Of a DNA stretch of 64,000 nt, positions 3,861-29,179 are shown piece by piece. The stretch is taken from the NCBI GenBank assembly GCA_028286615.1, contig JAQBRG010000002.1, forward strand, positions 31,235-95,234, written 5' to 3'. The notes beneath the pieces are model-generated. The model had not been told where the DNA came from. It saw only the letters and a list, made by a program, of their open reading frames with translations, and made no database searches. This stretch comes from Parcubacteria group bacterium (GTDB lineage: Bacteria; Patescibacteriota; Minisyncoccia; Phycocordibacterales; Phycocordibacteraceae). A program made the translations under genes and the position numbers. The number at the start of each line of letters is the position of its first letter. The stretch's first letter is position 1.

Positions 3861-3868
3861 GACTTTCT

Positions 3869-4201: not shown

Positions 4202-5005
4202 ATGACGCACTCAAACGATGCGCTCAAGGAGCTGCTCGCTCAAGCAGTCATCCGTAACGGGCTTGTTTGGTTCGAGCCAGTCGAGAATTCGAAGATCGAA
4301 AACGGATGTCTGGTCCTCGGACTACGGACAGCCACGGGTAAGACCCAACGATTGATGGGAAAAGGTGAGCCGAGGCTCAATCTCAAAGAAGCCGGTATTC
4401 CTTTCGGGAAAAGACCGTCGGTAACCCTTCTGCGAAAGGTGCGCAGGTATCTCGCAAAGAGATCAGCCCGACTTTCCGTTGATAAACCGATAAGCCAAGA
4501 CTTCCTATTCCGTGTGTGGTCTGGCATGGATCTTATCGAAGCACTGATACCAAGCGCATACGTTGGAATCCTTGAGCTACAAGCGAGTCTTCCGTTCGCT
4601 TATCGACGCATAACCGAAAAAGATCTAGACAGGGTCTCGGCAAAGGTTGATGAGAGTGTGCAGACAGTACTGGATAAATGCACCGTTTCGATACATCTCG
4701 AGGCTGTGGTCCCGATTCCAGGTATCGATCTTGGCTCGCCGTTTCTGATTGGGCGTAAACCTTTGCTCAATCTCGTCACGCCGGCAGACTCACCGGAAGG
4801 CAAAGCGCTCGCGGTGTATGAGCTTTTCTATCAAGCTTTGGCGGAGGAGTGCCGTAAGGATAATCTCCACATAACACTTAAGAAGTTCTGGTGCCCAGCC
4901 TTCCTTGCAAAGTGGATAGTTGGTACCCGAAATGATTTTGGTAACCCAGACGAGCTTGCGATTGATTTCGTTCACACGTGCCGCGCTGTTCTAAAAGCTG
5001 CATAA
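4202..5005 (+). CDS. Hypothetical protein
   Basis: 267-aa ORF with protein-like composition and no recognised motif. Confidence 0.5.
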   Translation: MTHSNDALKELLAQAVIRNGLVWFEPVENSKIENGCLVLGLRTATGKTQRLMGKGEPRLNLKEAGIPFGKRPSVTLLRKVRRYLAKRSARLSVDKPISQDFLFRVWSGMDLIEALIPSAYVGILELQASLPFAYRRITEKDLDRVSAKVDESVQTVLDKCTVSIHLEAVVPIPGIDLGSPFLIGRKPLLNLVTPADSPEGKALAVYELFYQALAEECRKDNLHITLKKFWCPAFLAKWIVGTRNDFGNPDELAIDFVHTCRAVLKAA

Positions 5006-5142
5006 CCCCATGCAGTAAAGGCTCGTCCCTCACCGGACGGGCCTTTTACATAACATATTGACAAATACACCAATATGGTGTATGTTAGACCCTGGCTTTC
5101 ATTGCGCATCCTGCGCCTACGTACCTTTTAGGGGACATAAAT

Positions 5143-5640
5143 ATGCAACGAGTTTGGACCTTTCTGCTCGCCATGAGTGCCACGGCGCTCTTCCTGCTGA
5201 TCGCACCTGTCGTGTTCGCTCGGTTGGGCGACATCGACGTGATCCGCAAGACCTGCCTCGTCATCACCGCGGGCGGCGGCGCGCTCTTCCTGCTGTACTA
5301 CATCATGGCAGCGCACGACCTGCCGCGGCATGAGATGAAAAGGCTCGACCATCTGCTGTTCATCGGCAGCGGCACGATCATCTCGACCATCGCGGTCTTC
5401 CTGTTCTTCGCGTTCAAGGACGTCTCGATCCTGGCGATGTTGGGCTTCGGCCTCGTCCTGGCTCTCACCACGGTGTTCTGCGGCAAAAAGCTGCAGGAGG
5501 CCACGGAGGAAGCTGCGAAGCAGAAGGAAGCTTTGCTTGAACGCGCGAACGAAATCGTCCGTGACCAGCAAGCTCCGCTCCAGTCGGCCAAGGGTGCGCC
5601 CTTCGGCTATGACCTGCACATCGACGCCGAGCCGTCCTAA
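5143..5640 (+). CDS. Hypothetical membrane protein, compositionally atypical (high GC)
   Basis: 165 aa with 3-4 TM helices plus a coiled C-terminus. DNA is about 60% GC with a CTG/GCG/GGC codon bias unlike the flanking genes. Confidence 0.55.
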   Translation: MQRVWTFLLAMSATALFLLIAPVVFARLGDIDVIRKTCLVITAGGGALFLLYYIMAAHDLPRHEMKRLDHLLFIGSGTIISTIAVFLFFAFKDVSILAMLGFGLVLALTTVFCGKKLQEATEEAAKQKEALLERANEIVRDQQAPLQSAKGAPFGYDLHIDAEPS

Positions 5641-5685
5641 CCAGGGCGCTCACGCATACTAGGCAACCCCGCCTCAACCTAACAA

Positions 5686-5717
5686 CGACCAGTTTCCTCA
5701 CGGAGCTGGTCGTTTTT
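5686..5717 (+). terminator. Rho-independent terminator
   Basis: cgaccag-tttcctcacggag-ctggtcg followed by ttttt. Confidence 0.55.
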
Positions 5718-5747
5718 GCTATTCCCATACCCCTTCTTCACCTTCCC

Positions 5748-5777
5748 TTGACGTACTCTGTGCTAAGCCGGTATACT
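5748..5777 (+). promoter_or_regulatory. Candidate sigma-70-type promoter upstream of rpoB
   Basis: TTGACG (5748-5753), 18-nt spacer, TATACT (5772-5777), about 150 nt upstream of the rpoB ATG. Confidence 0.35.
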
Positions 5778-5929
5778 CCTGGTACAGATTGAGTAACGGG
5801 GGCAGGCAGTGCGAAAAGCAGGAAAATACTTTAAAAACAGCGTCTCGAGACAACGAGAGACGTCGCCCGTTGTTATACGGGCGCTTCGGCGTTTCTTTCG
5901 TTTCGACACACATCTAATACGCCACAGAC

Positions 5930-8900: not shown

Positions 8901-9106
8901 GTTACGGATCTGCGTACACTCTTCGAGAAATGCTCACCATCAAATCGGACGATATCCAGGGACGCTCTGCGACCTTCGATGCAATCGTGAAGGGCGAGCC
9001 CGTTTCTCATGCAGGAACACCGGCATCCTTCTCGGTACTTACTAACCAGATCCGCGGTCTCGCGCTCGATATTGAACCTATCGAAGACGCGGCCTTGGAC
9101 GCCTAA
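5930..9106 (+). CDS. rpoB: DNA-directed RNA polymerase subunit beta
   Basis: 1058 aa with conserved RpoB blocks (GPGGLTRERAGFEVRDVHPSHYGRLCPIHTPEGQNIGL; GDKLAGRHGNKGVISRV; GGQRFGEMEVWAL). Confidence 0.97.
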   Translation: MEQKKLVPKTFGAYQPPRVDFPDLVGHQRESFNWLLKDGLQELFKEFSPIPDYSGKKFELRIDGFEIGEPKADEESARENMRTYEAPVKISVTLINKTFGSEKTQEIFLADMPMMTPHGSFIVSGVERAIVPQLARSFGAFFAAEEVKGKQYFGAKILPSRGVWIEIETDTDGSIFVKIDRKRKFPITNLLTVFGAGVRDELLTKFKGNEVAQAAITATLAHDTAQSMDDAFVEIHRRMRDGDLATPDNAKQYVNALFAPERYDLNRVGRHRLNARFGLPTDKKALDQRVLTVDDLLRIVGEIARMNQDPNAQPDDIDHLGFRRVRFVGELLQARMRVGMSRMKRNIQDRMSTIESETTLPMALVNPRPFQASVREFFTANQLSQFMDQQNILAELENMRTLSALGPGGLTRERAGFEVRDVHPSHYGRLCPIHTPEGQNIGLILRLALHARTNEFGVIETPYAKVTKGVVTDEIEYLNALDEENYVIAHGATPLDAKKHIVPDTIEARRGGEPAVVRRDEIDYIDASTYQMFSAATAMIPFVDHDDSNRALMGSNMQKQATPVLIPEAPLVATGIEEHAARNTGRLVIALESGTATYVDARRILIEDAKGKIKEYRLQGLTQTNQNSAFNQRPIIKTGDKVKKGDVLADASSSDQGQMALGQNVRVAFMSWSGANYEDAIIVSERLVEQSKFTTVHIEDFECAVRDTKLGAEVTTHDIPNVGELRLKNLDEEGVVRIGAEVRPGDILVGKVTPKGETQLTPEERLLRSIFGDKAKDVKDTSLRMEGGKRGRVIGVRVFSREKGDQLESGIIKKIVVTVAQVRNVSVGDKLAGRHGNKGVISRVLPVEDMPYDEDGNPIDLILTPLGVPSRMNLGQILEMHLGLAAHTLGYQAIVPPFAGATADEIRDELEAAGFSRNGKMQLFDGRTGEAFAQTISVGYMYILKLHHMVEDKIHMRSIGPYSLITQQPLGGKAQNGGQRFGEMEVWALLGYGSAYTLREMLTIKSDDIQGRSATFDAIVKGEPVSHAGTPASFSVLTNQIRGLALDIEPIEDAALDA

Positions 9107-9121
9107 CCTCTCACCTGACTT

Positions 9122-12100
9122 ATGGCACCACAACACAATTTCTCTGGGAATTCTTCGGGTCCGAAGAGGACAGGCGGTCCACGCCGAAACGAATGGAATG
9201 CGCTCAAGCTTTCGCTTGCGTCTCCTGAGCGTATCCTCGAATGGTCTCGTGGCGAGATCACCAAGCCGGAAACCATCAACTACCGCACCCAGCGCTCTGA
9301 AAAGCACGGACTCTTCGACGAGAAGATCTTCGGCCCTGAAAAGGACTACGAGTGTTACTGCGGCAAGTACAAGGGTATCCGTTACAAGGGCATCATCTGT
9401 GACAAGTGTGGCGTTGAAATAACCCGCAGCATCGTTCGTCGCGAACGCATGGGTCACATCGAGCTCGTTACGCCAGTTGCGCACATCTGGTTCCTTCGCT
9501 CAATGCCTTCACGTATGGCACTTCTTCTTGGAGTTCCTGCGGCAGACCTTGAGAAGGTTATCTACTTCGCGGGCTACATCGTTACGAAAGTAAACGAGGA
9601 CACGAAGCGTCGCATGCTTGCTGAGCTTGAGAGCGAGTACAAGACCAAGCACAAGGCACTTCAGGAAGAGAAGGAACGTGACGCTCTTAAGGAGCGCATG
9701 ACCACAGCTAAGACTGAGATTGAAAGCGTTGTGGTTGGACGCGTCTTTGACGAGATAACCTACCACCGCTTCTCAGTTCGTTACAGCACGCTCTTCGAAG
9801 CTAAGATCGGAGCCGAGGCTATTTACGACATATTCAAGAACCTCGACCTCAACAAGCTGAAGATTCAGCTCGAAGAGAAGTATCCGAAGTCTGCAGCAGC
9901 AGGCAAGGAGAAGCTCGCAAAGCAGATTGCGCTTGTTACAAACATGATCGCTGCGAAGATTCGTCCTGAATGGATGTTCCTCACGAAGATTCCTGTTATC
10001 CCGCCAGCACTTCGTCCTATGGTTGCGCTCGAGGGAGGACGTCACGCAACATCTGACGTGAACGACCTGTACCGTCGTGTTATCAACCGCAACAACCGTT
10101 TGAAGAAGCTCATCGACATCCACGCGCCTGAGGTTATTCTCCGCAACGAGAAGCGTATTCTTCAGGAAGCCGTTGACGCACTTCTCGACAACTCTATTCG
10201 AAAGAGCGGAGCGAGCGCCGGAGCACTAACTCCAGCACAGCGCCGCCCACTCAAGTCTCTCGCCGACTACCTTAAGGGAAAGCAGGGATACTTCCGCCAG
10301 AACCTTCTTGGAAAGCGCGTGGACTACTCAGGCCGTTCCGTTATTGTTGTGGGTCCTGACCTCGAGCTCGACGAGTGTGGTCTTCCTAAGCACATGGCGC
10401 TTGAGCTCTTCCGCCCATTCGTTATTGCAGGACTTCTGCAGCGCGAACTCGCGTTCAACATCCGTGGCGCCGGTCGTCTTATCGAAGACGGCGTAGCTGA
10501 GGTATGGGAAATCCTTGAAGAGGCAATCGCAGGGAAGTATGTTCTCTTGAACCGCGCTCCTACGCTTCACCGCCAGGGAATCCAGGCATTCCGTCCTCGT
10601 CTTATTGAAGGCGATGCTATCCAGCTTCACCCTCTCGTGTGTCCTGCGTTCAACGCAGACTTCGACGGAGACCAGATGGCTATCCACGTTCCTCTTTCTG
10701 AAGAGGCGCAGTGGGAAGCGAAGAACATGATGAGCGCTAACAAGAACATCTTGAAGCCAGGTTCTGGAAAGATGGTTGTTCTTACAGAGAAGCCGCTTGA
10801 TATCGTGCTCGGAACATACTGGCTTACGAAGGAAATTCCAGGAGCAATGGGCGAGGGCAATTACTTTGCTTCTCCTAACGCGGCTATCCTTGCGCATGAA
10901 TACAACGGAGTAGACCTTCGTGCACTCATCCACGTGATGCCAACACCTGAGAAGGCTAAGTACGCACAGTTCGAAGGAAAGACTTTCGAGACAACCGTTG
11001 GACGTCTTCTCTTCAACACCGTGCTTCCTGCAGACTATCCGTTCGTGAACGATGCCATCACCAAGAAGGTACTCTCAGCGATCATGATGGACTGTATCGT
11101 TCGCTACGGACTCGATGCTATTCCAGGTATCGTGAACAAGGTTAAGAAGTTCGGATTCGAATACGCAACCAAGTCTGGCGTGTCCTGGTCTGTTGACGAC
11201 GTGTCCGTGCCTGAGGGCAAGGGTGCTGTTATCGCAGCCGCACGTAAGAAGGTTGAAGCCGTTGAAGAGAACTTCGAGAACGGACTCCTCTCATCTGATG
11301 AGAAGCGCCGTATGGTTATTGAGATCTGGCACGGCACCAAGACTGAAGTTGAGAAACTCGTCGAGGAAGCGCTTGATCCTATGGGTTCGGTTGCAGACAT
11401 GGTGCGCTCAGGCGCCCGCGGTACGCTCGGCAACCTTACGCAGATGGCCGGTATGAAGGGTCTTATCCAGAACACGGCCGGCGAGACTATCGAAGTGCCT
11501 ATCGTTAACTCGATGACCGAAGGATTCAACCCTGTTGAGTACTTCATGTCGACACACGGTGCACGTAAGGGTCTTACCGACACCGCGCTCGGAACTGCTC
11601 GCGCTGGATACCTCACACGTCGTCTCTTCGACGTTGCGCAGGACTCTATCGTGACTGAAAAGGATTGTGGAACGAAGCGTGGTATTACGGTTGGCCGTGT
11701 GTCAGCTTCTGGTATCACTATCGATTTCGCTGAAGCCATTCGTGGACGCGTTCTCTCAAGTGAGGCGGGAGGTTTCAAGAAGAATCATTATCTTCTTCCA
11801 GAAGAAGCTCGTGCCATTGCCGAGAACACGGAAGTTGAGAACGTTATGCTTCGCTCACCTATGTCCTGCGAAACTCGCTATGGTATCTGTGGCATGTGTT
11901 ACGGAATGGACCTCACGACACAGCTCCCTGTTGATCTTGGAGAAGCGGTTGGTACGGTTGCCGCTCAGGCAATCGGCGAGCCGGGAACCCAGCTCACTAT
12001 GCGTACCTTCCACGCCGGAGGAACCGCGTCCGTTGGAGGAGACATTACCTCAGGTCTCCCTCGTGTTGAGGAAGTCTTCGAGAAGCGCTCTCCAAAGAAC

Positions 12101-14107: not shown

Positions 14108-14638
14108 ATGAAAATACTTCTTATTAGACACGGAGAGACAACCGGAGATCTCGAAGACCGTTATGGTGGAATATATGACGATCACCTCACTGAACTAGGT
14201 CAGCAACAGTTACATGAGACTGCTCAACAACTGGTTGGTGTACAGGTTGATAGGCTCTACACCAGCACACTTATACGAGCACAAGAATCTGCAAAGATTC
14301 TCAATGAAGTTCTTAAGACCGAGATAGAACTGGTTGATGGTCTACGGGAGCGCGACTACGGTGTCTTGGGCGGTCTAACTAAAGAGGAAGCGATTGAGAA
14401 ATATCCTGATGCTGTAGAGAAACATAAAGATCCTGCCAATACTGATCCTGAAGGAGAAAGTCTCACAAACTTCACTGAAAGAGTACTAAGCACATTCAAG
14501 TCTCTTGCGCAGCAGGGCGGAGAGATTGTCGTGATGGTGTCCCACGGTGGCCCGATTAAAACGATTATGAGGCATCTGAATATGCAGATTCCTCCCAAGC
14601 TTGGAGACGGAGAAATTATTGAAATTCAGCTACCTTAG
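14108..14638 (+). CDS. Histidine phosphatase family protein (phosphoglycerate-mutase-like)
   Basis: MKILLIRHGETTGD has the RHG catalytic motif. Length is 176 aa, with VSHGGPI near the C-terminus. Confidence 0.75.
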   Translation: MKILLIRHGETTGDLEDRYGGIYDDHLTELGQQQLHETAQQLVGVQVDRLYTSTLIRAQESAKILNEVLKTEIELVDGLRERDYGVLGGLTKEEAIEKYPDAVEKHKDPANTDPEGESLTNFTERVLSTFKSLAQQGGEIVVMVSHGGPIKTIMRHLNMQIPPKLGDGEIIEIQLP

Positions 14639-17854: not shown

Positions 17855-17862
17855 AATTTAGT

Positions 17863-17888
17863 AAAAAGCCCGCTATGCGGGCTTTTTA
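17863..17888 (+). terminator. Rho-independent terminator after rpoD
   Basis: aaaaagcccgc-tatg-cgggcttttt. Confidence 0.7.
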
Positions 17889-18075
17889 CTAAACATACAG
17901 TTGTCTAAAAAAGTATCGAAGGATCTATTCGGATTAATAAAGATAAAAGCTCGGGAATGACTTAGAGACATGGATCCCTTTGAGATGAGTTCTCCGTCCA
18001 AGGCTTGTTAGAAAGTGTCAAATCGAGTTAATACTGCTACGCTCAATAAAAGGCATATAATAAACCTCGCCTCAT

Positions 18076-20139
18076 ATGAATATAGACAAGATCAGCATCA
18101 AAAATTTCCGTCTTCTTCAAGACGTATCTCTCTCGCTTGAAAAAGCGACAACGCTTATTGTGGGTAGGAATAACAGCGGAAAGACTTCTTTAACAGAGCT
18201 TATTCGCAGACTCCTCTCTGAAAAAAATGTATCGTTTCGTCTTGAAGACTTTTCTTTATGTGCACATGAGGAGTTTTGGAGTGCCTTTACTCTCCTTCAT
18301 GAAGAGACGACTGATGAGGAGGTTCGCAAAGCTCTTCCTGTTATTGAAGTATTGATGACAGTGAGTTATGAGAAAAACTCCGTCGACTTTGGTCCGCTTT
18401 CGAATTTCATAATTGATTTGAATCCAGATTGCACGTCCGCAATAATCGCAATCTCTTATCAGTTGGGAGACGGCAAAGTCAAAAACTTATTTGAAGGTCT
18501 TGAGTTTGATCAATCAGCACGTGGCGCTTTCTTTTTGGCAATGAAAGAACGTATCCCAAAGCTCTACAGTATCAGCCTAAATGCAATCGATCCGAACGAT
18601 ATTACGAATACTAAGGAGTTAGAATGGTCTAAGCTCCACACACTTTTAAATGTTGGTTTTATTAATGCACAAAGAGGACTGGATGACGAGACATATAAGG
18701 ACAAAGATATTCTCGGAAAGATTCTTGAGATTCTCTTTACAACAGCACTTGCAGAATCAGCTGACGAAAGTGACCGAAAGACTGCTCAAGATTTGGAAAT
18801 AGCCGTAAAAGGAGTTCAACATGATATTGATTTAGACTTCAATGAGAACCTAAGGAAGCTCGTGCCCGCCTTATCATTATTTGGTTATCCGGGTCTTGCG
18901 GATCCAGGACTTCTAACGGAAACAACCCTGGATGTTAAACGGCTCCTGAAAGACAACACAAAAATTAGATACACCGGCGTAAACGGCATAAGTCTACCTG
19001 AGGCCTTTAATGGTTTAGGTGCACGTAATCTTATATTCATACTCCTCAAACTTTTGGAGTTTTTCAAGACTTACAAGGCTAGTGCAGATACTCCAGGAAT
19101 TCAAGTGGTTTTTATAGAGGAGCCCGAGGCGCATCTGCATCCACAGATGCAAGAAGTCTTTATAAGACAGCTAGATGCCATAGCAAAGGTCTTTGCTGAG
19201 AAATATAACGGCGGTAATCCATGGCCTGTTCAGTTTGTTGTATCGACTCACTCATCCCATATTGCAAACGAGGCTTCTTTCGACGCTACAAGGTACTTTA
19301 TTTCAACTCCAGAAGAAGTTTCTGGAAAAGTATTCTGTAAAACACGAATTAAGGATCTGCGTGTAGGTTTGGATGGAGCTTCTGTTCCCGACAGAAACTT
19401 TTTGCATCAGTACATGACGTTGACTAAATCCGACCTGCTTTTTGCTGACAAGGCAATCTTAATTGAAGGGACGTCTGAACGTCTAATGCTGCCAAAGATT
19501 ATTCAACATGTAGATTTGTCTCAAGCTGAAGATGTAAAACTCGGTAGCCAATATATCACCGTCGTGGAGGTTGGCGGAGCTTATGCCCAAATCTTTTTTG
19601 AGCTTTTGAATTTTCTGGAACTTCGTACACTTATTTTAACTGATATTGATTCAGTGAAGACTGAGAGTGGAGCGGATACTGCTCACAAGAAGGCGTGCAT
19701 TGTTTCTGAAGGTGAACAGAGTTCAAATTCCTGCATAAATAATTGGTTTGTAGATGTTGAGTCTGTTCCCCAGCTTCTTTCAAAGACTTCGGACCAGAAG
19801 ATTGTGGGTATAAAGCGAATTGCTTACCAGGTTCCGGAAGCTGAAGGAGAGAGTTGCGGACGAAGTTTCGAGGGAGCTTTTATGCTCGCTAACCCCGTTC
19901 TTTTTGGTCTGGAGGGTAAGAGTATCCCTGAACGGGAGGCCGAAGTGTGGGATTTGACTAAGGGAATTCGGAAAACTCAGTTTGCTCTCAAGTACGGTAT
20001 TAATGAGACTGAATGGACCGCACCTTTATATATTCGTGAAGGGTTGCAATGGTTAGCAGGTGAACCGTCGGGTGTTCCGCATGCGACAACTGTAACAGTT
20101 GAAGAAACACACGATAACCACGAACAGAATATTTCTTAA
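18076..20139 (+). CDS. OLD-family ATP-dependent endonuclease (N-terminal ABC/AAA_15-type ATPase plus C-terminal Toprim), GajA-like
   Basis: Walker A: MNIDKISIKNFRLL...GRNNSGKTSLTE. Walker B: VVFIEEPEAHLHPQMQ. Toprim Glu: AILIEGTSERLMLPKI. Toprim DxD: LILTDIDSV. Confidence 0.8.
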   Translation: MNIDKISIKNFRLLQDVSLSLEKATTLIVGRNNSGKTSLTELIRRLLSEKNVSFRLEDFSLCAHEEFWSAFTLLHEETTDEEVRKALPVIEVLMTVSYEKNSVDFGPLSNFIIDLNPDCTSAIIAISYQLGDGKVKNLFEGLEFDQSARGAFFLAMKERIPKLYSISLNAIDPNDITNTKELEWSKLHTLLNVGFINAQRGLDDETYKDKDILGKILEILFTTALAESADESDRKTAQDLEIAVKGVQHDIDLDFNENLRKLVPALSLFGYPGLADPGLLTETTLDVKRLLKDNTKIRYTGVNGISLPEAFNGLGARNLIFILLKLLEFFKTYKASADTPGIQVVFIEEPEAHLHPQMQEVFIRQLDAIAKVFAEKYNGGNPWPVQFVVSTHSSHIANEASFDATRYFISTPEEVSGKVFCKTRIKDLRVGLDGASVPDRNFLHQYMTLTKSDLLFADKAILIEGTSERLMLPKIIQHVDLSQAEDVKLGSQYITVVEVGGAYAQIFFELLNFLELRTLILTDIDSVKTESGADTAHKKACIVSEGEQSSNSCINNWFVDVESVPQLLSKTSDQKIVGIKRIAYQVPEAEGESCGRSFEGAFMLANPVLFGLEGKSIPEREAEVWDLTKGIRKTQFALKYGINETEWTAPLYIREGLQWLAGEPSGVPHATTVTVEETHDNHEQNIS

Positions 20140-21881
20140 TGAGTCTTACATCTACAAAAAATCCGGCAGAAGAAGCAGCACAAGCAGCCCTTGATGCTGT
20201 ATATAGATGTATCACTGAACGCAAGAGCTTTATCCTCGAGGCAGGCGCAGGTGCAGGAAAAACATATTCGCTGATAAAATCTTTAGAGTTTCTATTAAAG
20301 AATTCTGGTCCAGAACTCAGAAGGCGACAGCAAAAAATAGCCTGTATTACTTTCACAAACGTTGCAAAAAACGAGATAGAATCGAGAACAGATAAAAACC
20401 CTATTATTCACTCGGATACAATCCACGCCTTCTGTTGGTCTTTAATTAGGAATTTTCAGCCAGAATTGAGAGTAGCATTACCATCTATAGGTAAATGGGC
20501 TGAAAGAATGACTGTAACCGAGGTTACAGATCTTGGATTAAGAGAAGTTGTCTATGACTTGGGATATCCTTCGATTGAGGAACATCAGATCAATCTGTAT
20601 CACGACGACGTGCTTGATTTAATTGTTACCCTCTTAGAAAAGCCAAAGTTTAGAACTTTTTTTCTTAGTCAGTATCCAGTTTTATTTATAGACGAGTATC
20701 AAGATACGAATAAGAAATTTGCAGACGCAATTCAAAGGCATTTCCTTGGGAAAGATGAACCCATACTGATAGGTTTTTTTGGAGACCACTGGCAGAAAAT
20801 CTACGGTGATGGTTGTGGAAAAATTGAACACGAGAGTCTGGATATTATTGAGAAGAATTCAAATTTTAGATCTGTTCCTGCCGTGGTAAACGTGCTTAAT
20901 GCCTTAAGGCAGGAACTTCCGCAAGAAGTCAAGGATCCTGACGCAGCAGGAACTGCAGCAGCGTATCATACGAATAATTGGGCAGGCGTTAGACGTACAG
21001 GCGCTCATTGGAATGGTGATGTGTCGTCGGAAGCAGCACATGCTTATCTCCTGAACTTAAGAACTAACTTGATAACACAAGGTTGGGATTTCGATCCCAC
21101 TAAGACTAAGATATTAATGCTTACACATAATGTGCTGGCTGAAGAGCAAGGGTACAAGAACTTCGCAGATGTATTTGAGAGAAATGAATCGTTTATAAAA
21201 AAAGAGGATAAATATGTTGCTTACTTTGTTGATACTCTCGAGCCTTTATGTGCTGCTTACGAAAATAAGAAGTTCGGGGATATGTTCACAGTTCTTGGTG
21301 GACGTAAACCCTTAATGATTACTCATCAAGATAAAATAAAATGGTCTGAAAGCATGAATGGACTTATTGCACTTAGACATACCGGTACAATAGGTCAGAT
21401 AGTTGAATATATTAGAGACAAGAAATACCCACGTTTACCAGAGGTTCTGGAGCGTAAAGAAAAGGAATTTGAGGATTTTGTTCTAGAGGATGGAGCTGAA
21501 GAACCTAAGAGTATTGGACGGCTTCGCGCACTTAAGAAGATTATGTACAAGGAGGTAATTTCATTTGCGCAATTTAGCAATGCTTATACTCCATTTGCGA
21601 CGAAACACAGTGTTAAAGGTGCTGAATTCGAAAATGTCCTCATTGTCTTGGGTCGTGGTTGGAGTCAGTATAATTTTGATCAAATGCTTACGTGGATGAA
21701 TACCACGGTTCCTGTAGATAAAATAGATACGTTTGAGCGTTCAAGGAACCTCTTTTATGTTTGCAGCTCTAGACCAAAGAAACGGTTAGCGCTTCTCTTC
21801 ACTCAAAAACTTGAGGATTATTCGCTCGGAGCACTAAGCACATTATTTGGATCTGAGGTCCATGCTTTACCTAATATTTAG
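20139..21881 (+). CDS. UvrD/PcrA-like SF1 helicase, GajB-like partner of the OLD nuclease
   Basis: Motif I AGAGAGKTYS, Ia ITFTNVAKNE, II FIDEYQDTN, III FGDHWQKIY, and C-terminal VKGAEFENVLIV. The start ATG overlaps the upstream stop (TAATG). Confidence 0.8.
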   Translation: MSLTSTKNPAEEAAQAALDAVYRCITERKSFILEAGAGAGKTYSLIKSLEFLLKNSGPELRRRQQKIACITFTNVAKNEIESRTDKNPIIHSDTIHAFCWSLIRNFQPELRVALPSIGKWAERMTVTEVTDLGLREVVYDLGYPSIEEHQINLYHDDVLDLIVTLLEKPKFRTFFLSQYPVLFIDEYQDTNKKFADAIQRHFLGKDEPILIGFFGDHWQKIYGDGCGKIEHESLDIIEKNSNFRSVPAVVNVLNALRQELPQEVKDPDAAGTAAAYHTNNWAGVRRTGAHWNGDVSSEAAHAYLLNLRTNLITQGWDFDPTKTKILMLTHNVLAEEQGYKNFADVFERNESFIKKEDKYVAYFVDTLEPLCAAYENKKFGDMFTVLGGRKPLMITHQDKIKWSESMNGLIALRHTGTIGQIVEYIRDKKYPRLPEVLERKEKEFEDFVLEDGAEEPKSIGRLRALKKIMYKEVISFAQFSNAYTPFATKHSVKGAEFENVLIVLGRGWSQYNFDQMLTWMNTTVPVDKIDTFERSRNLFYVCSSRPKKRLALLFTQKLEDYSLGALSTLFGSEVHALPNI

Positions 21882-22026
21882 CTTGAATTAGATAATTTGC
21901 AGCAATTTCTCTTTGCGTCAAATCCGAATTTCAAATGATTTCGTATCATACAAAGTATCACTGTTGTTTCTCGAGTTACCGAGGCATCAAGTCATAAGTG
22001 CAAAATTGCGCTAAGATTGCCTCTAC

Positions 22027-22830
22027 ATGAGGCTTTTTATTACCGACGACTGTAATGTAACGTGGGATCCGAAAGTTGATTACTTTCTCTACGGCGGCAT
22101 CGTTGTGCCTGATTCGGAAGCACGAGTACTTGCCGAACAGCTTCTTACCCTCAAGGCAGGAGCCGGGATTCGGAAGGAGAGGCCAGTTAAGTGGAGTAAT
22201 AACAAATGGAAGGGTGAAGCTCTTTTTAATGAAAAGATTCATGCAGCAATAAAAAATCAGGTATTGGACTTGGTGCGTTCATCGGGTGCGAGGATTATTG
22301 TATGTGTAAGCCCGCAAGGTTTTTATCATACAGGCACAATGAAGGGAGAAAAGGTACGGATGGCAATTGATGTTGAAACGCAGAAACGAACACAGCAGTA
22401 TGCGCTTAATGACGTTGTCGCTAAATTCCACTCTTATCTTGAGGAGGTAGATGATCAAGGCATGATCCTTGCCGACAAGTTCGGTCAGGGGGTTAAGGCT
22501 CACATGGACGAGCACTGCATGAATTCTTTTCCTAGGGGAAGAACTCCTACGCCACGTATAATTCATCCAATAATCCAGCTTGATAATGAGGAGAGCCATC
22601 TGCACCAGATAAACGATGTTGTTCTGGGATCGATTTATTTCTCTCTTCGAGAAATGGGTTTCAACTTTCTGCCAGCGATTCGTGACAACTTCTGGATGCG
22701 AGAGGTGGGGGATTATTCATCTATCCTCTACAAAGGATTTAATATATATCCTTTAAGACCCGCTAAGCGAGGCCTGGTTGCAAGTAACCAAGCACTAGAG
22801 CAAAAGTTTAATCGTCTAATTACTGTATAA
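22027..22830 (+). CDS. Hypothetical protein in defence island (possible divergent DUF3800-like)
   Basis: 267 aa. N-terminal MRLFITDDCN loosely resembles the LFIDESG N-terminus of the DUF3800 protein at 41553..42272. No other motif recognised. Confidence 0.45.
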   Translation: MRLFITDDCNVTWDPKVDYFLYGGIVVPDSEARVLAEQLLTLKAGAGIRKERPVKWSNNKWKGEALFNEKIHAAIKNQVLDLVRSSGARIIVCVSPQGFYHTGTMKGEKVRMAIDVETQKRTQQYALNDVVAKFHSYLEEVDDQGMILADKFGQGVKAHMDEHCMNSFPRGRTPTPRIIHPIIQLDNEESHLHQINDVVLGSIYFSLREMGFNFLPAIRDNFWMREVGDYSSILYKGFNIYPLRPAKRGLVASNQALEQKFNRLITV

Positions 22831-22843
22831 TTTAAATAAAGTT

Positions 22844-23167
22844 ATGAATGTCATAAGGGGAACACTTCATCGAGACAATTCAAGAGATAGTTACTGGTCC
22901 CGGATTTTGCTGAAGTCGTCTGAGAATAAAGGCGAGACTTTCGTATATGTATGTGCCTCGTATGAGTATTTAAATTACACATTAAATATTAAGACACTTA
23001 CAGATGAAGCTCTCCATGGATGGGTAGACGACGTCATCATCGAATGGACTGCAAAGGGAGACTCTATTTTTAAGAAACCTTTTCATATAGATGTAAAAGC
23101 TATCACAGAAGAAGGTCGTTTAAATGGTCTGGCATATCTAAGAAAGGAGGTAGTTCCCGCTGTTTAA
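22844..23167 (+). CDS. Hypothetical protein (107 aa)
   Basis: ORF 14 nt downstream of the previous gene with protein-like composition and no recognised family. Confidence 0.4.
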   Translation: MNVIRGTLHRDNSRDSYWSRILLKSSENKGETFVYVCASYEYLNYTLNIKTLTDEALHGWVDDVIIEWTAKGDSIFKKPFHIDVKAITEEGRLNGLAYLRKEVVPAV

Positions 23168-23235
23168 TATTTATCTTGTCCACATTTTAATTTCAGCATT
23201 TTCTTAACTTTATTTTAAATGGATTTAAGCCATAT

Positions 23236-24129
23236 ATGAGAGACTTTGTCTCTAACGCTCAAAATATGGAAACTGATATAATATTCTCAATGCCCGCAAG
23301 TGCCACTAACCGAATAGCTTCAAAACTCGAAACTGAGCCATACTTCAAAGAGAAGGATTTCTTGCTCTATAACGGAGACTCTATAGAGCTTCTGAATCAA
23401 ATGCCAGAAGAGTCTATAGATATGGTTTTCGCAGATCCTCCCTACAATCTTTCGAATGGAGGGTTTACTGTACATGCTGGAAAAATGGTAAGTGTTAATA
23501 AAGGGGATTGGGATAAGAGTAAGGGATTCGAAGACGACTACGATTTTCATTTTCGCTGGCTGCAAGCTGTACGGCGCGTATTAAAACCTCACGGAACCTT
23601 ATGGGTTAGCGGAACATACCACTCTATCTATCAATGTGGCCACGCGCTGCAAGCGCTAGATTTTCATATTCTGAACGATATCTCTTGGTTTAAACCGAAT
23701 GCGTCTCCCAACTTAAGTGGACGTTTCTTTACTGCTAGTCACGAGACAATTATCTGGGCTAGAAAGGAGAAAAAGGCTAAACACATTTTCAACTACAAGT
23801 TAATGAAAGAAGGGAACTGGCCAGAAGATGCTCTTAAGAAACCAGGCCTTCAAATGCGATCTGTATGGTCTATGGGAACTCCAAAACCTTCTGAAAAGAA
23901 GCATGGGAAGCATCCTACTCAGAAGCCGATAGATCTTCTTAAAAGAATTGTGCTATCAAGCACAAACGAGGGCGATGTCGTGCTTGATCCTTTCACAGGC
24001 AGCTCAACAACTGGTCTAGCTTCAATTACGCACGGACGCAAATTCATAGGTATTGATCTCGAGAAAGATTATCTTGATCTATCTATAAAAAGATATAAAG
24101 ATATCAACATGAATCCAAACCTGCTCTAG
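23236..24129 (+). CDS. DNA methyltransferase, beta-class amino-MTase (N6-adenine or N4-cytosine)
   Basis: Motif IV DPPY (VFADPPYNL) precedes motif I (VLDPFTGSSTTG), the beta-class order. NDISWFKPN is also present. Confidence 0.85.
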   Translation: MRDFVSNAQNMETDIIFSMPASATNRIASKLETEPYFKEKDFLLYNGDSIELLNQMPEESIDMVFADPPYNLSNGGFTVHAGKMVSVNKGDWDKSKGFEDDYDFHFRWLQAVRRVLKPHGTLWVSGTYHSIYQCGHALQALDFHILNDISWFKPNASPNLSGRFFTASHETIIWARKEKKAKHIFNYKLMKEGNWPEDALKKPGLQMRSVWSMGTPKPSEKKHGKHPTQKPIDLLKRIVLSSTNEGDVVLDPFTGSSTTGLASITHGRKFIGIDLEKDYLDLSIKRYKDINMNPNLL

Positions 24130-24131
24130 TT

Positions 24132-24932
24132 ATGCCCAAGAAACCATCATGGAAAGAAGAAGCTTGGGATACTCTACTAAAAAAGCTTTGGGACAATCGA
24201 GCTGAAGGAGTTACTTCTGTTGTGTATACAAAGGCTGATTTAAATCCAATTCTTTCGCAATACACACAATCTGGTCAAGGAGAGATACGAATATTCAACT
24301 CAAGTTCGAACGGACTCAATGCCTTAAAGCTTAGAGGTGTTAAGAAAATTCCTCTAACGAGAGATAGTTGGAGAATTGTTGAACGACCAGCAGCTATTGA
24401 ACTAAATGAACCTTCTGAAGGTGGCAAGTTTACTGCACAGCAAGAATTAACAGCTGGAATGATAGCGGGTATAGATGAGTCTATGCGTCATCGTTCTAAT
24501 CCTGGCGAGACAACGTTATTGGCTATAGCTAATCATATTGGAATAATTGCAGACTTTTACAACCTCAAGGACAAGGGGGTTTTGTTTACTGGAGGTAGAC
24601 AAAAAGCCGGTATTCATTTGGTCGTTGGGGATGCTGAACTAGACATGACCAAAGCTCAGATAGAAATCGATGGAGGGTTTGAATGGCGAGATAGTGTAGT
24701 AATTGCCGAAATGAAGAGCTCGTTTAAGCAAAAAGACTTCGACGTAAACCAAGCTCTTATTCCTATGCTGAAATGGCAGAAGTTACTTGTTGCCAAGAAA
24801 GTCTACTCTTTAGTTATGTTGGCTCAAACTAATAGGACTGGTATCGAATATTGGGCATATGATTTTGCGCATGAAGGGAAAGGTATTGGAATGAAAATAT
24901 CAAAGAGTAAAAAGTATCTTGTTGAAATATAA
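24132..24932 (+). CDS. Putative type II restriction endonuclease (PD-(D/E)xK candidate), cognate to the methyltransferase
   Basis: Starts 3 nt after the MTase stop. Candidate catalytic signature IEIDGG...(13 aa)...VVIAEMK. No other family assignment. Confidence 0.4.
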   Translation: MPKKPSWKEEAWDTLLKKLWDNRAEGVTSVVYTKADLNPILSQYTQSGQGEIRIFNSSSNGLNALKLRGVKKIPLTRDSWRIVERPAAIELNEPSEGGKFTAQQELTAGMIAGIDESMRHRSNPGETTLLAIANHIGIIADFYNLKDKGVLFTGGRQKAGIHLVVGDAELDMTKAQIEIDGGFEWRDSVVIAEMKSSFKQKDFDVNQALIPMLKWQKLLVAKKVYSLVMLAQTNRTGIEYWAYDFAHEGKGIGMKISKSKKYLVEI

Positions 24933-25473
24933 GTACGAAGTACGAGAAAGCAGTCGAGCAAAGCATGTACGTATAACCGTCCGTGAGAATGGGCAGGTAG
25001 TTATAACTAAACCAAAGAGAATGCCTTCATCGAAGGTAGAAGCTTTCGTTGCCAAACATGCGGACTGGATTGAAAGGGCGCAAGAGCGAATAGAGAAAAG
25101 AAAGCCAAGGCTTCCTAAGGAACAACTTCCACGTATACGTCGTAACTCGAAAGCATATAAAGAAGCTCAAGAACAAGCTCGTACTCTCGTCACAGCCCGC
25201 CTCATACATTTCAATAAGGTCTACAATTTCACATACGGCACCATATCCATACGTAACCAAAAGACTCGGTGGGGAAGTTGTTCAGCAAAAGGAAACCTTA
25301 GCTTTAACTACCGTATAGCTTTTCTTCCTCCAGAACTGGCAGACTACATAATTGTGCATGAGCTCTGCCACACGAAAGAGCATAATCATTCGCCTCGCTT
25401 CTGGGTAGAAGTAGCTCGCACTATCCCAAACTATTTAGCCTTACGAAACCAACTTCGAACCTATAGATTCTAA
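24919..25473 (+). CDS. DUF45/YgjP-like (WLM/M48-like) zinc-dependent hydrolase
   Basis: HExxH motif IIVHELCHTKEHNHSPRFW is characteristic of the DUF45 family. The ORF overlaps the upstream one by 14 nt. Confidence 0.65.
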   Translation: MLKYKYEVRESSRAKHVRITVRENGQVVITKPKRMPSSKVEAFVAKHADWIERAQERIEKRKPRLPKEQLPRIRRNSKAYKEAQEQARTLVTARLIHFNKVYNFTYGTISIRNQKTRWGSCSAKGNLSFNYRIAFLPPELADYIIVHELCHTKEHNHSPRFWVEVARTIPNYLALRNQLRTYRF

Positions 25474-25486
25474 AGAGTAAACAAAG

Positions 25487-25516
25487 GCCGCTCGAGCTGG
25501 GGCTCGAGCGGTTTTG
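25487..25516. terminator. Bidirectional rho-independent terminator between convergent genes
   Basis: ccgctcgagc-tggg-gctcgagcgg followed by tttt, with an A-run upstream so it serves both strands. Confidence 0.7.
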
Positions 25517-25530
25517 GTATTAACCAAGAA

Positions 25531-26106
25531 TTAGTATCGACGCCAGGCTCTTTCAGAACGTTTCTCGTAGATGATGGTGCGCGGATCTTCGCACACCGTC
25601 CACTCTTGTCCCGCCTCTTTTTTCTCAAACCGCGTTCTGGTCTGACTATCGTTGGATTTGAAATAGGCCAACTTGTCGTTGTGGAAGAGTTGGTGGCGTG
25701 GGAAAGTGCCGTTGAGTTTCACCAGATCCTGGCTCTCCCAGAGCACAGTCTCAATTGCAGTAGAGCCGCGCCGTTCCAGAATCTGTGTAACGCGATAGAA
25801 AGGAAGATTGGCGACCTGATCCAAAGCGTCCTTGTAGTTCGCATAGAGTCCCCACGGCCTTGCCAGAGACCCCTTTGCATTGGTGGCGATCACGAAGGCC
25901 AGATGGTCGCCTTTAATTGGCGTTAGCTGCCCCTCGGATGGGGGAGTCCAGCGTAAGCCGGGACTCCTTGCAACAAACGTCACTCCTTCGCGCAAATGAA
26001 AGAAAAGGTCTGCAACGTGCCGACCCTCTACTTTAATAAAGCCGAAGTTCTTCCCGTCACCCGCAATAAAGCGAGAAACGTATCCTGTGTCGAATTTAAA
26101 GGACAT
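25531..26106 (-). CDS. Cold-shock-domain (CSD) fusion protein, hypothetical C-terminal domain
   Basis: N-terminal YVSRFIAGDGKNFGFIKVEGRHVADLFFHLRE resembles the CSD core (GFGFI...FFH). About 120 aa of unknown function follow. Confidence 0.5.
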   Translation of the reverse strand: MSFKFDTGYVSRFIAGDGKNFGFIKVEGRHVADLFFHLREGVTFVARSPGLRWTPPSEGQLTPIKGDHLAFVIATNAKGSLARPWGLYANYKDALDQVANLPFYRVTQILERRGSTAIETVLWESQDLVKLNGTFPRHQLFHNDKLAYFKSNDSQTRTRFEKKEAGQEWTVCEDPRTIIYEKRSERAWRRY

Positions 26107-26203
26107 GTTAACCTCACTTCAAATGGGTTGTTTGCTGAATGTATTTAAGCACGTATAAGTACATACGTCAATAAACAGGGAGATTACGAGTCTTTGTCGT
26201 AAA

Positions 26204-29179
26204 ATGAATGTAATGGCATCAAGCGCAGCATTCGACGAGGCATACAAGAAGCTCAATAAGGAGCAGAAATTGGCCGTAGACAGCATAGACGGCCCTGTCT
26301 TTGTAATTGCGGGACCTGGCACGGGAAAGACCCAGGTTCTCACCCTACGCGTTGCGAACATCCTCCAGAAGACCGATACGCCCCCAGACGCTATCTTGGC
26401 CCTCACCTTTACGGAAAGTGCCGCTTCCAATATGCGAGAGCGTCTCTCGGCTATGATTGGCGGCACAACCGCCTGGAAGGTCCGTATGCACACCTTCCAC
26501 GGCTTTGCCGAGTCTCTTATCAGCCGATACCCAGATGCCTTCCCAAGGATTGTAGGAGGGCAGGTAGCAAGCGATGCTGAACGGGCTGAGATTATTGAGG
26601 CCGCCATACTCACAAGCGAAGTTACGCATCTTCGTCCCTATGGCGACCCTCTCTACTACTACCGTTTCGTTAGCGGTGCTATTCCAACGCTTAAGCGAGA
26701 AAACGTAACTCCAGAGAAGCTGCTCGAGCGAATAATAGAAGCTGAAGCAGACTTTGAAGCTATTCCAGACAAGTTCAATACAAAAGGAAAGTACGAAGGG
26801 AAGATGAAAGGAGATTTCTTAACCCTTCAGAAGAAGATAGAAAAGACCCGAGATCTCCTTACGGTATATAAAGCATATGAAGCAGGACTAACCGCACGCA
26901 AGCGCTACGACTTTGATGATCTTATTCTTGAAGCAGTACGAGGCTTAACCGAAGACGAGAACCTTCGTCTCCAGGTACAGGAAAGCACGCAGTATGTGTT
27001 AGCAGACGAACATCAGGACGCTAACGCCGCACAGAACGCACTCCTTGAACTCCTTACGGACTACGACGCTCGTCCCAATCTCTTTATTGTGGGAGACGAG
27101 AAGCAGGCTATCTATCGTTTCCAAGGAGCAGACCTCGATAACGTGCACTATTTCCGTGAACGCTTTACCGACACGAAGATAATCGCACTCATAGAGAACT
27201 ATCGCTCAACCCAAAGCATTCTCGATACCGCCCTCTCCCTCATTGTCGCGTCTCCAGACGAGCGTCTTTCTCGCGCTCCCTTGGTTGCTAAGAGCGATGC
27301 AAAGGCGAGACCTATAAGCGTTGTTGCGTGCGAGACTCCTGAACAAGAGGGTGCAGAACTTGCTACACGTATTAAAGCTCTAATAGAAGAAGGAACTAAA
27401 GCAGAAGACATTGCAGTGTTTGGGCGCACCAATAGCGACGTTAGTTTCCTAGTAGAAGAACTTAAGAAAGCAGACATAGCCGTGAGTGCAGGAGGAGAAA
27501 CAAGCGCGCTTAGGAACCGTTACGTACAGGCGCTCATACGACTCCTTAAAGCCATTGCAGAACCGAGAGACGAGAATCTTATTGGCATAATGACGCTCCC
27601 CGCATTCCCGCTTTCAGCTGCAGATGTGTGGCGCGTTATGCAGTATGCAAAGAAGGAACGTATGCCCGTACTTTCTCTTATGCGTTCTCCTGAGAAACTA
27701 AAGGAAGCTCGCCTTGGAGACGAAGCCGCAGCACTCGCGCTTGGTGCTCTTATAGAACAGCTCGTACGTGTAGCAACCATAGAGCGTCCTGCTGTTGTAG
27801 CTGAAGAAGCACTACGTCTTTCAGGTATTCTTCCTCGTATCCTTGGAGCACCAGACCGCGCAGAATCCCTAGCAGCTATTCGTGCACTACTCCGTACTCT
27901 TGAAGACCTTTCTCGAAGGGAGCACGACGCCATGCTCGCGCGTTCCCTCCAGATCCTAGATCTATACGAAGAAAGGAATATCTCTCTTACAGGAGACGTA
28001 ACAGAAGCTCCTGGAAAGGTTAAGGTTATGACCGTACACAAAGCAAAGGGAAGAGAGTTCCTCTACACCTTCATTCCTCGCCTCACAGAAAGCAGCTGGT
28101 CTACCCGTTCCCGTCCTGAGCATTTCCATCTGCCAGACATTCTTTCAGGAAGTGCAGAACTTGAAGACGAACGCCGCCTCCTCTACGTTGCTATTACGCG
28201 CGCCAAGAACCACGCAACCATTTCATACGCTGCAACTCGTAGCGACGGACGTGCTGACGCACCTTCTACGCTTCTTGAAGATCTAACAAAAGAACTGGTC
28301 CAAGAAGAAGTATCAAAGGCTACGTACGAAGACCCGCTTCTCACAGAACGCACCCCGAAGCGCGAAGGGAACCAGCCTTCCAAAGACGATCTTGAAACTC
28401 TCAAGCACGCATTCATTTCTCAAGGCCTTTCAGCAACAGCTCTCAACAACTATTTAGAATGTCCCTGGAAGTATTTCTATGTGAACCTGCTGCGTATTCC
28501 TGAAGCGGAGAACAAGTTCATGCTGTATGGAACTGCTGTGCATGCGGCTCTCCACAGATACGCACTTGAACGCAAGAAGGGCATAGATATTGGAGCGGAG
28601 GGACTTATCTCTTCCTTCACCCACACCCTTACACGTTCTCCTCTCTCAGACGCTGAACTCAAAGAACTCCAAGCAAAGGGAGAACGGTCTCTAGGACTAT
28701 GGTGGGAAGACAGGCACGTGAGCTGGCCAGAGCGCACTGAAGCCGAGCTTGCTGTTGAAGCCAAGCTCAAGCTTACAGACGGTACGGAATTTACAGTTAA
28801 AGGAAAGCTAGATCGTATAGATGAAACGAGTAACGGAGCGTCAGTTGTGGACTACAAGACTGGAAAGCCTAGAAGCCGCAACGAGCTTATGGGAAATACC
28901 AAAGAAGGCGACGGCAATTACTATCGCCAGCTCGTCTTCTACAAGCTCCTTCTCGCACATACTGAAACTCCTCGCGTTATGCAGGACGGCATTATTGAAT
29001 TCGTAGAACCAGATGAGAAGGGAAGAATACGTACTGAACTGTTCCCTATATCAAATGAGGCGATGGATGAGCTTGAGGCTCTTGTTAAGAAATCTGCAGA
29101 AGAGATACTCACTCTTTCGTTCTGGAATGAGCCGTGTAACGAAGTTGCGTGTCCGTGGTGCTCGATTCGTTTCAGTTAA
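26204..29179 (+). CDS. UvrD-like helicase fused to C-terminal RecB-family (PD-(D/E)xK) nuclease with Cys cluster (AddA/AdnA-like helicase-nuclease)
   Basis: Motif I GPGTGKTQVLT, II LADEHQDAN. Nuclease motifs GKLDRIDE and VVDYKTGK. Terminal cysteines CPWKYF...EPCNEVACPWCS (Cx4Cx2C) resemble a 4Fe-4S nuclease-domain cluster. Confidence 0.8.
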   Translation: MNVMASSAAFDEAYKKLNKEQKLAVDSIDGPVFVIAGPGTGKTQVLTLRVANILQKTDTPPDAILALTFTESAASNMRERLSAMIGGTTAWKVRMHTFHGFAESLISRYPDAFPRIVGGQVASDAERAEIIEAAILTSEVTHLRPYGDPLYYYRFVSGAIPTLKRENVTPEKLLERIIEAEADFEAIPDKFNTKGKYEGKMKGDFLTLQKKIEKTRDLLTVYKAYEAGLTARKRYDFDDLILEAVRGLTEDENLRLQVQESTQYVLADEHQDANAAQNALLELLTDYDARPNLFIVGDEKQAIYRFQGADLDNVHYFRERFTDTKIIALIENYRSTQSILDTALSLIVASPDERLSRAPLVAKSDAKARPISVVACETPEQEGAELATRIKALIEEGTKAEDIAVFGRTNSDVSFLVEELKKADIAVSAGGETSALRNRYVQALIRLLKAIAEPRDENLIGIMTLPAFPLSAADVWRVMQYAKKERMPVLSLMRSPEKLKEARLGDEAAALALGALIEQLVRVATIERPAVVAEEALRLSGILPRILGAPDRAESLAAIRALLRTLEDLSRREHDAMLARSLQILDLYEERNISLTGDVTEAPGKVKVMTVHKAKGREFLYTFIPRLTESSWSTRSRPEHFHLPDILSGSAELEDERRLLYVAITRAKNHATISYAATRSDGRADAPSTLLEDLTKELVQEEVSKATYEDPLLTERTPKREGNQPSKDDLETLKHAFISQGLSATALNNYLECPWKYFYVNLLRIPEAENKFMLYGTAVHAALHRYALERKKGIDIGAEGLISSFTHTLTRSPLSDAELKELQAKGERSLGLWWEDRHVSWPERTEAELAVEAKLKLTDGTEFTVKGKLDRIDETSNGASVVDYKTGKPRSRNELMGNTKEGDGNYYRQLVFYKLLLAHTETPRVMQDGIIEFVEPDEKGRIRTELFPISNEAMDELEALVKKSAEEILTLSFWNEPCNEVACPWCSIRFS

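Follow-up and report, generated by a model that had tools for sequence, protein, structure and literature searches.

A DUF3800-family gene and a small partner of a new family form a mobile cassette, a candidate conflict module, in a defence island of a Parcubacteria-group genome

We analysed a 64,000-nucleotide stretch of DNA from a Parcubacteria-group metagenome-assembled genome (henceforth the window) with a focus on two adjacent genes in the AT-rich island that follows rpoD: gene A (22027-22830, + strand), which encodes a protein of 267 aa, and gene B (22844-23167, + strand), which encodes a protein of 107 aa. These two open reading frames (ORFs) are identical to JWN64_70 and JWN64_71. We found that A and B constitute an obligate, autonomous and horizontally mobile two-gene cassette, in which a divergent DUF3800-family protein, predicted to be a nuclease with an RNase H fold, is joined to a small partner that belongs to a new family. 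This combination of DUF3800 with a new protein partner, and with no reverse transcriptase, TPR or Cas component, is undescribed in the literature that we searched. A first-pass annotation of the same DNA had listed the two ORFs as lacking any recognisable family and had proposed that they form a two-gene cassette, being either an undescribed defence system or an accessory to the Gabija-like gene pair next to them. Both ORFs do exist at the coordinates given above, and the cassette does recur among restriction-modification (R-M), TIR and recombinase genes in unrelated genomes; the lack of a family held for B, for which neither a family nor a significant PDB match to its predicted fold was found, but not for A, which matched DUF3800.

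Pairing and genomic contexts of A and B

Genomic contexts were fetched from homologues of A (loci L001-L010) and, independently, from divergent homologues of B (L011-L014, L095-L099 and L100-L104). Across the window, L001-L014, L095-L104 and L108, A was followed by B on the same strand with a gap of 1-17 nt wherever both positions lay on the contig, and this order held without exception in the first round of contexts (10 distinct ones, 19 loci) as well as in L100-L104 and L108. The lone exception was L106, where the most divergent B (33% identity), at the far edge of the B family, stands 1 nt behind an unrelated 245-aa protein (392-1448). Pairwise distances between A proteins were correlated with those between the corresponding B proteins (r = 0.89, Mantel p = 2e-4; 14 loci). 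When the window was compared with its closest relative by cassette sequence, L108, A showed 80% amino-acid identity (non-synonymous differences pN 0.13, ratio to synonymous differences pN/pS 0.15) and B 71% (pN 0.17, pN/pS 0.20), with synonymous sites being saturated in this comparison (pS 0.86). Both genes are under purifying selection.

With a gap of 13 nt between them in the window, A and B are probably translationally coupled. The 145-nt spacer that separates A from the preceding gene, gajB (21882-22026, + strand), is presumed to hold the promoter of the cassette; its sequence is not shared with L108, its predicted folding was not significant (z-scores of -1.7 and -1.5), and it had no Rfam match at E<=10. 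We also observed a 5-bp GC-rich hairpin (GCCTC-TACAT-GAGGC) followed by TTTTTAT at 22019-22033, which spans the ATG of A, is not conserved in L108 and could be either a chance occurrence or a translational or attenuation element. Gene B is bracketed almost exactly by an 18-nt AT-rich inverted repeat (22831-22848 and 23201-23218, 89% complementary).

In the window, the neighbours of the cassette are Gabija and R-M genes. Elsewhere it was found near two N6_N4 methyltransferases (MTases), a serine recombinase and a type I R-M system (L001), near an MTase, an SNase-domain protein, MutH, Dcm and a recombinase (L002), near tyrosine integrases (L010) and near two ThsB-TIR genes (L095). L004 holds an element of ~8.5 kb with Dcm, an NgoFVII-type restriction endonuclease (REase), a copy of the structured RNA LOOT (see below), a Rep_O-like gene and a large serine recombinase; the cassette lies at its right end, and the element apparently splits a comM-like Mg-chelatase gene (1-745 and 9298-9774). 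A serine-recombinase element with an AAA_13 protein carries the cassette in L006 and L097-L099. In these four loci an opposite-strand gene pair (146 aa and ~400 aa; 1260-2893 on the minus strand of L006, 8334-9973 on the minus strand of L097) was observed directly downstream of A-B, with the large serine recombinase coming next. No Pfam families were found for the recurrent neighbours of the cassette (146-aa, ~400-aa, 244-aa, 189-192-aa and 579-aa proteins). Immediately upstream of A-B in L013 are smpB, the transfer-messenger RNA (tmRNA) gene and two tRNA genes (6488-7088), and a tRNA-Arg(TCT) gene lies 110 nt upstream of A in L108 (523-596); such tmRNA and tRNA sites are typical integration hotspots. 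L008 and L011 carry the cassette among housekeeping genes only. Across 136 neighbour genes compared with PADLOC, the families most often matched were R-M methyltransferases.

Predicted properties of A and B and a nearby structured RNA

The A family comprised 23 clusters among 5.8 billion proteins. DUF3800 was matched by 21 of the 23 members at E<=0.01 (best 2.2e-7), several of which carry precomputed PF12686 matches, while the A protein of the window scored 17.7 bits against PF12686 (E 0.0059), below the gathering cut-off of 21 bits. Judged from these profile matches, A is a divergent DUF3800 protein. Eight residues were invariant across the 23-member alignment (D7, H101, D150, H163, Q184, Q194, N196 and D197), and position 8 was D or E in every member, the window having DD. 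The D-[D/E] and QxND motifs persisted, down to 30% identity, in each of the 14 A proteins whose loci we examined. Two motifs have been defined for DUF3800 (PMC7736814): DE, which closes the first beta-strand near the N-terminus and has its counterpart in the D-[D/E] of A, and QxxD, near the C-terminus, to which Q194-I-N-D197 corresponds. Past the Pfam domain, A has a conserved C-terminal extension of ~60 aa (N213, L215, P216, G237, P242, R263). An apparent truncation of A in L011 proved to be a gene-calling artefact, the full ORF starting at 7183.

An RNase HII-like fold has been reported for DUF3800 (PMC7736814, PMC10910872). The AlphaFold2 model of A was of high confidence (predicted local distance difference test, pLDDT, 92.1; predicted template-modelling score, pTM, 0.90), and its best Foldseek matches in the PDB were archaeal and human RNase HII/H2 structures (1eke, 3puf and 1io2; probability 0.92-1.0, template-modelling (TM) scores 0.29-0.48). 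In the model, D7/D8 lie at the end of strand 1, D150 ends strand 145-150 and D197, like the rest of the QxND motif, falls within helix 191-208, an order that is expected of the carboxylate set of RNase H-type enzymes such as RNase HII. As modelled, A has an RNase H-type fold with an intact acidic motif set (D7-D8, D150 and Q194xND197), which suggests that it would be a metal-dependent nuclease acting on RNA or RNA/DNA hybrids.

B was assigned to no Pfam, PADLOC, NCBIfam or PHROG family, whether searched alone or across 28 relatives, and no PADLOC model was matched consistently. A profile search of 1.84 billion representative proteins returned 116 clusters, nearly all of them stand-alone proteins of ~105 aa, with invariant residues D15, W18, S39, E41, Y42, W60, F76, H81, T88, G91 and G95 and the motifs RDxYW, CASYEYL and TxxGxxNG. 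The AlphaFold2 model of B had a pLDDT of 92.4; fold searches with it gave no PDB match better than E 0.09 and nothing significant in BFVD, and B was not found in IMG/VR viral contigs. In two clusters (P0088 and P0123), B is fused to an uninformative, uncharacterised C-terminal extension of ~300 aa, while a third apparent fusion (P0091) was rejected as read-through into grpE. Given these extensions and the alternative upstream gene in L106, B may be a modular partner domain.

Proteins of the DUF3800 family have been described as effectors of type VII retrons (PMC7736814) and as accessories in Cas12a2, Cas12a3 and type VI-F loci (PMC10910872, PMC13594972, PMC12669027); 11 unrelated RNA motifs associate with DUF3800 genes, on either side and in either orientation (PMC5737381); and a strain-specific DUF3800 gene was essential-like, alongside antitoxins, in Legionella transposon sequencing (10.1101/2020.10.01.323287). 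With the retron and CRISPR-associated members, A shares the D-[D/E] and QxxD motifs, the predicted RNase HII-like fold and a match to the Pfam model (sub-threshold in the window), and A-B is likewise found in defence or mobile genetic element (MGE) contexts, with a structured noncoding RNA (ncRNA) nearby in many loci. Unlike them, A-B comes without a reverse transcriptase and msr/msd, without a TPR domain and without cas genes. Specifically, A had no match to a TPR domain, Pfam and PADLOC revealed no cas genes in the 17.9-25.5 kb region, and no retron reverse transcriptase or msr/msd was found beside A, the ORFs of the island being assigned to other families and the island having no Rfam RNA. 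A further differs from them in having a dedicated partner of ~105 aa from a new family, an extra C-terminal extension and a Pfam score below the gathering cut-off. The closest PADLOC entry was PDC-M04, itself, as far as is known, a candidate system: the profile of its component A (PDC-M04A) was matched by 22 of the 23 A-family members (best 9.4e-10), although the match in the window was partial and confined to the N-terminal ~70 residues (residues 9-77 of 267, profile 12-78 of 232; E 1.6e-4), and the partner differs, since none of the PADLOC profiles fits B. Nothing useful on PDC-M04 or LOOT emerged from the literature that we searched. DUF3800 recurs beside retrons, rare Cas12/Cas13 systems and at least 11 unrelated structured RNAs, and A-B would represent its minimal, protein-only version, i.e., a predicted nuclease with one small partner, compact enough for direct biochemistry.

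LOOT was detected with Rfam RF03000 and with a covariance model that we built from six copies. Six loci have it on the strand opposite to A and 126-234 nt upstream of that gene: L001 (7755-7874, -), L007 (22-146, -), L010 (2297-2415, -), L097 (6929-7049, -), L099 (1413-1533, -) and L100 (4940-5060, -). In L101 (764-883, +) it follows B at a distance of 70 nt and shares its strand; two further copies are located 4.3-4.7 kb upstream of A-B, in L002 (3580-3704, +) and L004 (3207-3323, +). These 9 matches came from 0.196 Mb of A-B loci, compared with 0 matches in 1.27 Mb of related DNA from the candidate phyla radiation (CPR), and LOOT adjoins the cassette in about half of the other A-B contexts. 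The possibility that LOOT is the leader of some conserved gene was rejected: the proteins flanking it are unrelated to one another, so A-B is its constant neighbour. Of the viral stretches that matched its pattern, 80 were listed and fetched, and none of these proved to be a real LOOT. In the window, the custom lineage-specific model found no LOOT with filters off, and Rfam gave no RNA near A (none in the island at E<=10, none in the 64-kb window at gathering score), the only hits being terminator look-alikes. Since the sub-lineage formed by the window and L108 has no LOOT, the RNA is not required in cis here.

Like the motifs DUF3800-I to -XI, drum and skipping-rope (Weinberg 2017), LOOT stands beside A-B on either side and in either orientation; unlike them, it does not appear where the main text of that study lists the DUF3800 motifs, and the window copy of the cassette has no Rfam RNA at all. 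LOOT may be a further DUF3800-associated RNA, and its linkage to the cassette appears unreported in the searched literature. Its adjacency in the sister loci suggests that the DUF3800 family can use a protein partner, an RNA partner, or both.

Possible functions of the cassette

Our preferred interpretation, to which we assign a probability of roughly one half, is that A-B is an autonomous conflict module of the toxin-antitoxin (TA)-like or abortive-infection type, in which B controls the nuclease A. In its favour are the neighbours of the cassette in unrelated genomes, namely R-M and TIR genes, recombinases and tRNA/tmRNA sites, together with the retron and CRISPR roles of DUF3800 proteins, the weak match of A to PDC-M04A and the essential-like Legionella gene; the defence role is a candidate one, put forward by guilt by association. 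Under such a scheme, B would be made in a fixed proportion to A through translational coupling and would bind and control A, as an inhibitor or as an infection sensor, until an attack by a phage or MGE released A to cut RNA or RNA/DNA-hybrid substrates. We only infer the nuclease activity, the physical interaction of A with B, the direction of control and the anti-phage function. Similarly to enzymatic two-gene TA and abortive-infection modules (e.g., type V and type VII TA), A-B is compact, co-inherited and probably coupled in translation, as well as patchily distributed on islands and integrative elements; unlike TA modules, it has no homology to any known toxin or antitoxin. More tentatively, A-B (with LOOT in many lineages) may be an undescribed defence system largely confined to CPR/Patescibacteria, in which a DUF3800 nuclease with an RNase H fold would be governed by the small protein B and, optionally, by a structured RNA. 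If true, this would be the first functional handle on the partnership between DUF3800 and ncRNAs and on the orphan LOOT RNA.

Several observations weigh against a conflict module. Three loci (L008, L011 and L013) have no recognisable defence gene within 8 kb of the cassette. B has no DNA-binding or antitoxin-like signature, and its many invariant polar and aromatic residues could fit an enzyme or a ligand-binding protein and not a simple inhibitor. The structural matches between A and RNase HII reach TM-scores of merely 0.29-0.48, and kinship between A and RNase H at the sequence level was rejected, as a PDB profile search returned no matches and hhalign against E. coli RNase HII gave a probability of 0.35%. 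No DUF3800 protein with a demonstrated activity was found in the searched literature. Finally, the frequent recombinase and LOOT neighbours fit a role in element maintenance equally well.

Two alternatives place the cassette in the service of mobile DNA. One, which we consider rather unlikely, is that A-B is a plain addiction (TA) module that stabilises islands and integrative elements with no dedicated anti-phage role; in that case the toxin may be B, with the DUF3800 enzyme as its antidote, or the roles may be swapped. The tight two-gene operon with its gap of 1-17 nt and the co-evolution of A and B as a unit are consistent with this, as are the position of the cassette at element edges beside serine recombinases or integrases (L001, L004, L006, L097-L099 and L010) and the Legionella DUF3800 gene that was scored essential and grouped with antitoxins (10.1101/2020.10.01.323287). 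However, no known family of toxins or antitoxins was matched by A or B, the layout of a 267-aa enzyme with a 107-aa protein behind it is unusual for type II TA, and there is no recombinase in the window, L008, L011 or L095; moreover, TA and abortive-infection roles are compatible, such that addiction overlaps with the conflict module favoured above. The other alternative, which seems to us less likely still, is that A-B and LOOT together serve the elements that carry them, e.g., by processing RNA primers or RNA/DNA intermediates for replication or transfer, the window copy being a remnant without its RNA. Such a function would account for LOOT lying beside A-B or 4.3-4.7 kb from it in nine loci while being absent from the 1.27 Mb of background, and for the presence of a Rep_O-like gene and serine recombinases in the same elements, and the modelled RNase H fold would imply chemistry on RNA/DNA hybrids. 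Yet intact A-B copies persist under purifying selection with neither LOOT nor a recombinase in the window, L108, L008, L011, L013 and L095, searches of IMG/VR viral contigs found no B, and most loci have no linkage to a replication initiator.

The remaining alternatives tie the cassette to its neighbours in the window. We regard it as improbable that A-B belongs to the adjacent type II R-M system as an accessory, acting as its controller or second effector, with 22027-24932 forming one four-gene system. In L108 the order A-B-MTase is kept, with an MTase orthologue of 64% identity directly after B, and L001, L002, L097 and L100 have N6_N4 MTases no more than 5 kb away from A-B; but the orthologue was found in L108 only, which indicates that A-B and R-M moved as a block in this sub-lineage alone, and the MTases of the other four loci are 24-27% identical to that of the window and vary in position and strand. 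Furthermore, L004, L006, L008, L010, L011, L013 and L095 have no such MTase, the DUF6997 REase was absent from all other A-B loci searched, and R-M genes are the commonest cargo of islands in any case. Most improbable, and effectively refuted, is the accessory role in the Gabija pair that the first-pass annotation had put forward, for which adjacency and a shared strand in the window are the sole support. When we searched for GajA and GajB homologues using tblastn, none was found in the 27 other A-B loci, the closest relative L108 included, in which A is instead preceded by a tRNA-Arg gene; hence the cassette is no accessory of Gabija but its downstream neighbour in this window. The spacer of 145 nt between GajB and A is not conserved, and Gabija is known as a self-sufficient two-gene system.

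The island and its other modules

The region after rpoD is a horizontally acquired defence island at a variable hotspot, and it is a mosaic of three independent modules: Gabija, the A-B cassette and a type II R-M system. It displays both an atypical composition (by GC statistics) and presence/absence at a conserved site (by synteny across 80 loci), the two hallmarks of a genomic island. The GC content of 17890-24918 is 0.406, whereas 429 other segments of equal size in the 64-kb window had a mean of 0.484 (sd 0.026) and a minimum of 0.443; per kilobase, GC was 0.386-0.428 over 18-25 kb, compared with values of about 0.48-0.58 in the flanks that hold rpoC, dnaG, rpoD and the helicase gene, and GC at third codon positions (GC3) was 0.31-0.43 in the island genes against 0.51 in rpoD and 0.59 in the first gene past the island. 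These values bear out the earlier impression that 17.9-25.5 kb is more AT-rich than its flanks. The terminators that had been proposed to delimit the region were likewise recovered as hairpins: on the left, after rpoD, a bidirectional intrinsic terminator at 17857-17893 (an inverted repeat whose 17-nt arms match perfectly around a 3-nt loop, bordered by A and T runs), which Rfam leader and terminator models matched weakly on both strands, and on the right a bidirectional terminator at 25481-25518 (a 10-bp stem with 8 GC pairs, T-rich tails and T/A runs on either side). Neither att-like direct repeats flanking the island nor an integrase was found.

For comparison, 80 rpoD loci were retrieved from relatives among the Paceibacteria, Kaiserbacteria and other Parcubacteria, and the proteins of the window were mapped onto them. 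The conserved backbone order was dnaG-rpoD-(variable)-helicase-d267, the helicase of the window being a UvrD/PcrA-like helicase-nuclease at 26204-29179. A helicase was present downstream of rpoD in about 40 of the 80 loci and started about 50-900 nt past rpoD in at least 15 of them (e.g., L020, L052, L054, L058, L034 and L078). Homologues of GajA, GajB, A, B, the MTase or the REase were found at this junction in none of the 80 loci, in keeping with the defence island that had been suggested, and the rpoD-helicase gap of the window (17855-26203, 8.35 kb) was the largest among the loci compared. Other cargo occupies the junction in relatives: the closest relative by RpoD (L015, 93%) carries a low-GC type III R-M system (Mod and Res) within 3314-9894, followed by an S49 peptidase and a YgjP homologue, both at backbone GC, and L019 (11117-17133) carries SOUL, RhuM-Fic, TfoX and a methyltransferase, followed by YgjP. 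With differing cargo in these two genomes and none in many others, the rpoD-helicase junction is a variable cargo hotspot.

The Gabija module consists of gajA (18076-20139, + strand; GC3 0.37), encoding an OLD-family ATPase with a TOPRIM nuclease domain, and gajB (20139-21881, + strand; GC3 0.33), encoding a UvrD-like helicase, the start of gajB overlapping the stop of gajA. GajA matched PADLOC PDLC00063 (1e-275, residues 1-670) as well as Pfam AAA_15 (1.3e-52) and OLD-like_TOPRIM (9.4e-16), and GajB matched PADLOC PDLC00113 (4.4e-246) and Pfam UvrD-helicase (4e-20). Both PADLOC matches were full-length, by which the OLD/UvrD pair already noticed in the first-pass annotation (18076-21881) is classified as canonical Gabija. 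The R-M module, also recognised there, is probably a type II system (23236-24932): an N6/N4 DNA methyltransferase (23236-24129, + strand; PF01555 5.9e-59, PADLOC MTase_II 4e-98) is followed by a probable restriction endonuclease with a DUF6997 domain (24132-24932, + strand; PF22518 3.3e-17, PADLOC REase_II 4e-8), whose GC3 of 0.31 is the minimum of the island. The last gene before the right terminator, which overlaps the stop of the REase gene by 14 nt, encodes a YgjP-like metallopeptidase (24919-25473, + strand; PF01863 1.9e-46, GC3 0.39). In L015 and L019, the two closest relatives, homologues with 63% and 56% identity stand at the corresponding place ahead of the helicase, so YgjP may belong to the backbone and not to the imported DNA, which makes its membership of the island and the right end of the acquired segment uncertain. 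An island with Gabija and R-M would on its own be ordinary; this one shows Gabija, R-M and a candidate module side by side at a hotspot next to rpoD in the ultra-small genomes of CPR bacteria, whose repertoires of defence systems have been little explored.

Between the island and the helicase lies a 191-aa gene (25531-26106, - strand) with a GC3 of 0.59 and a weak, sub-threshold match to a cold-shock domain, for which no homologue was found at the same site in the 80 related loci. An ORF of 164 aa that runs antisense to the start of the helicase gene, at its 5' end (26119-26613, - strand), gave tblastn matches wherever the helicase was present and was rejected as a gene, being a shadow ORF of the conserved helicase. 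Elsewhere in the window, the gene between rpoC and dnaG (14108-14638) has a GC content of 0.448, and further dips (0.40-0.41 per kb) occur at 41001-42000, 50001-51000 and 55001-56000; these other dips could be further small acquired segments.

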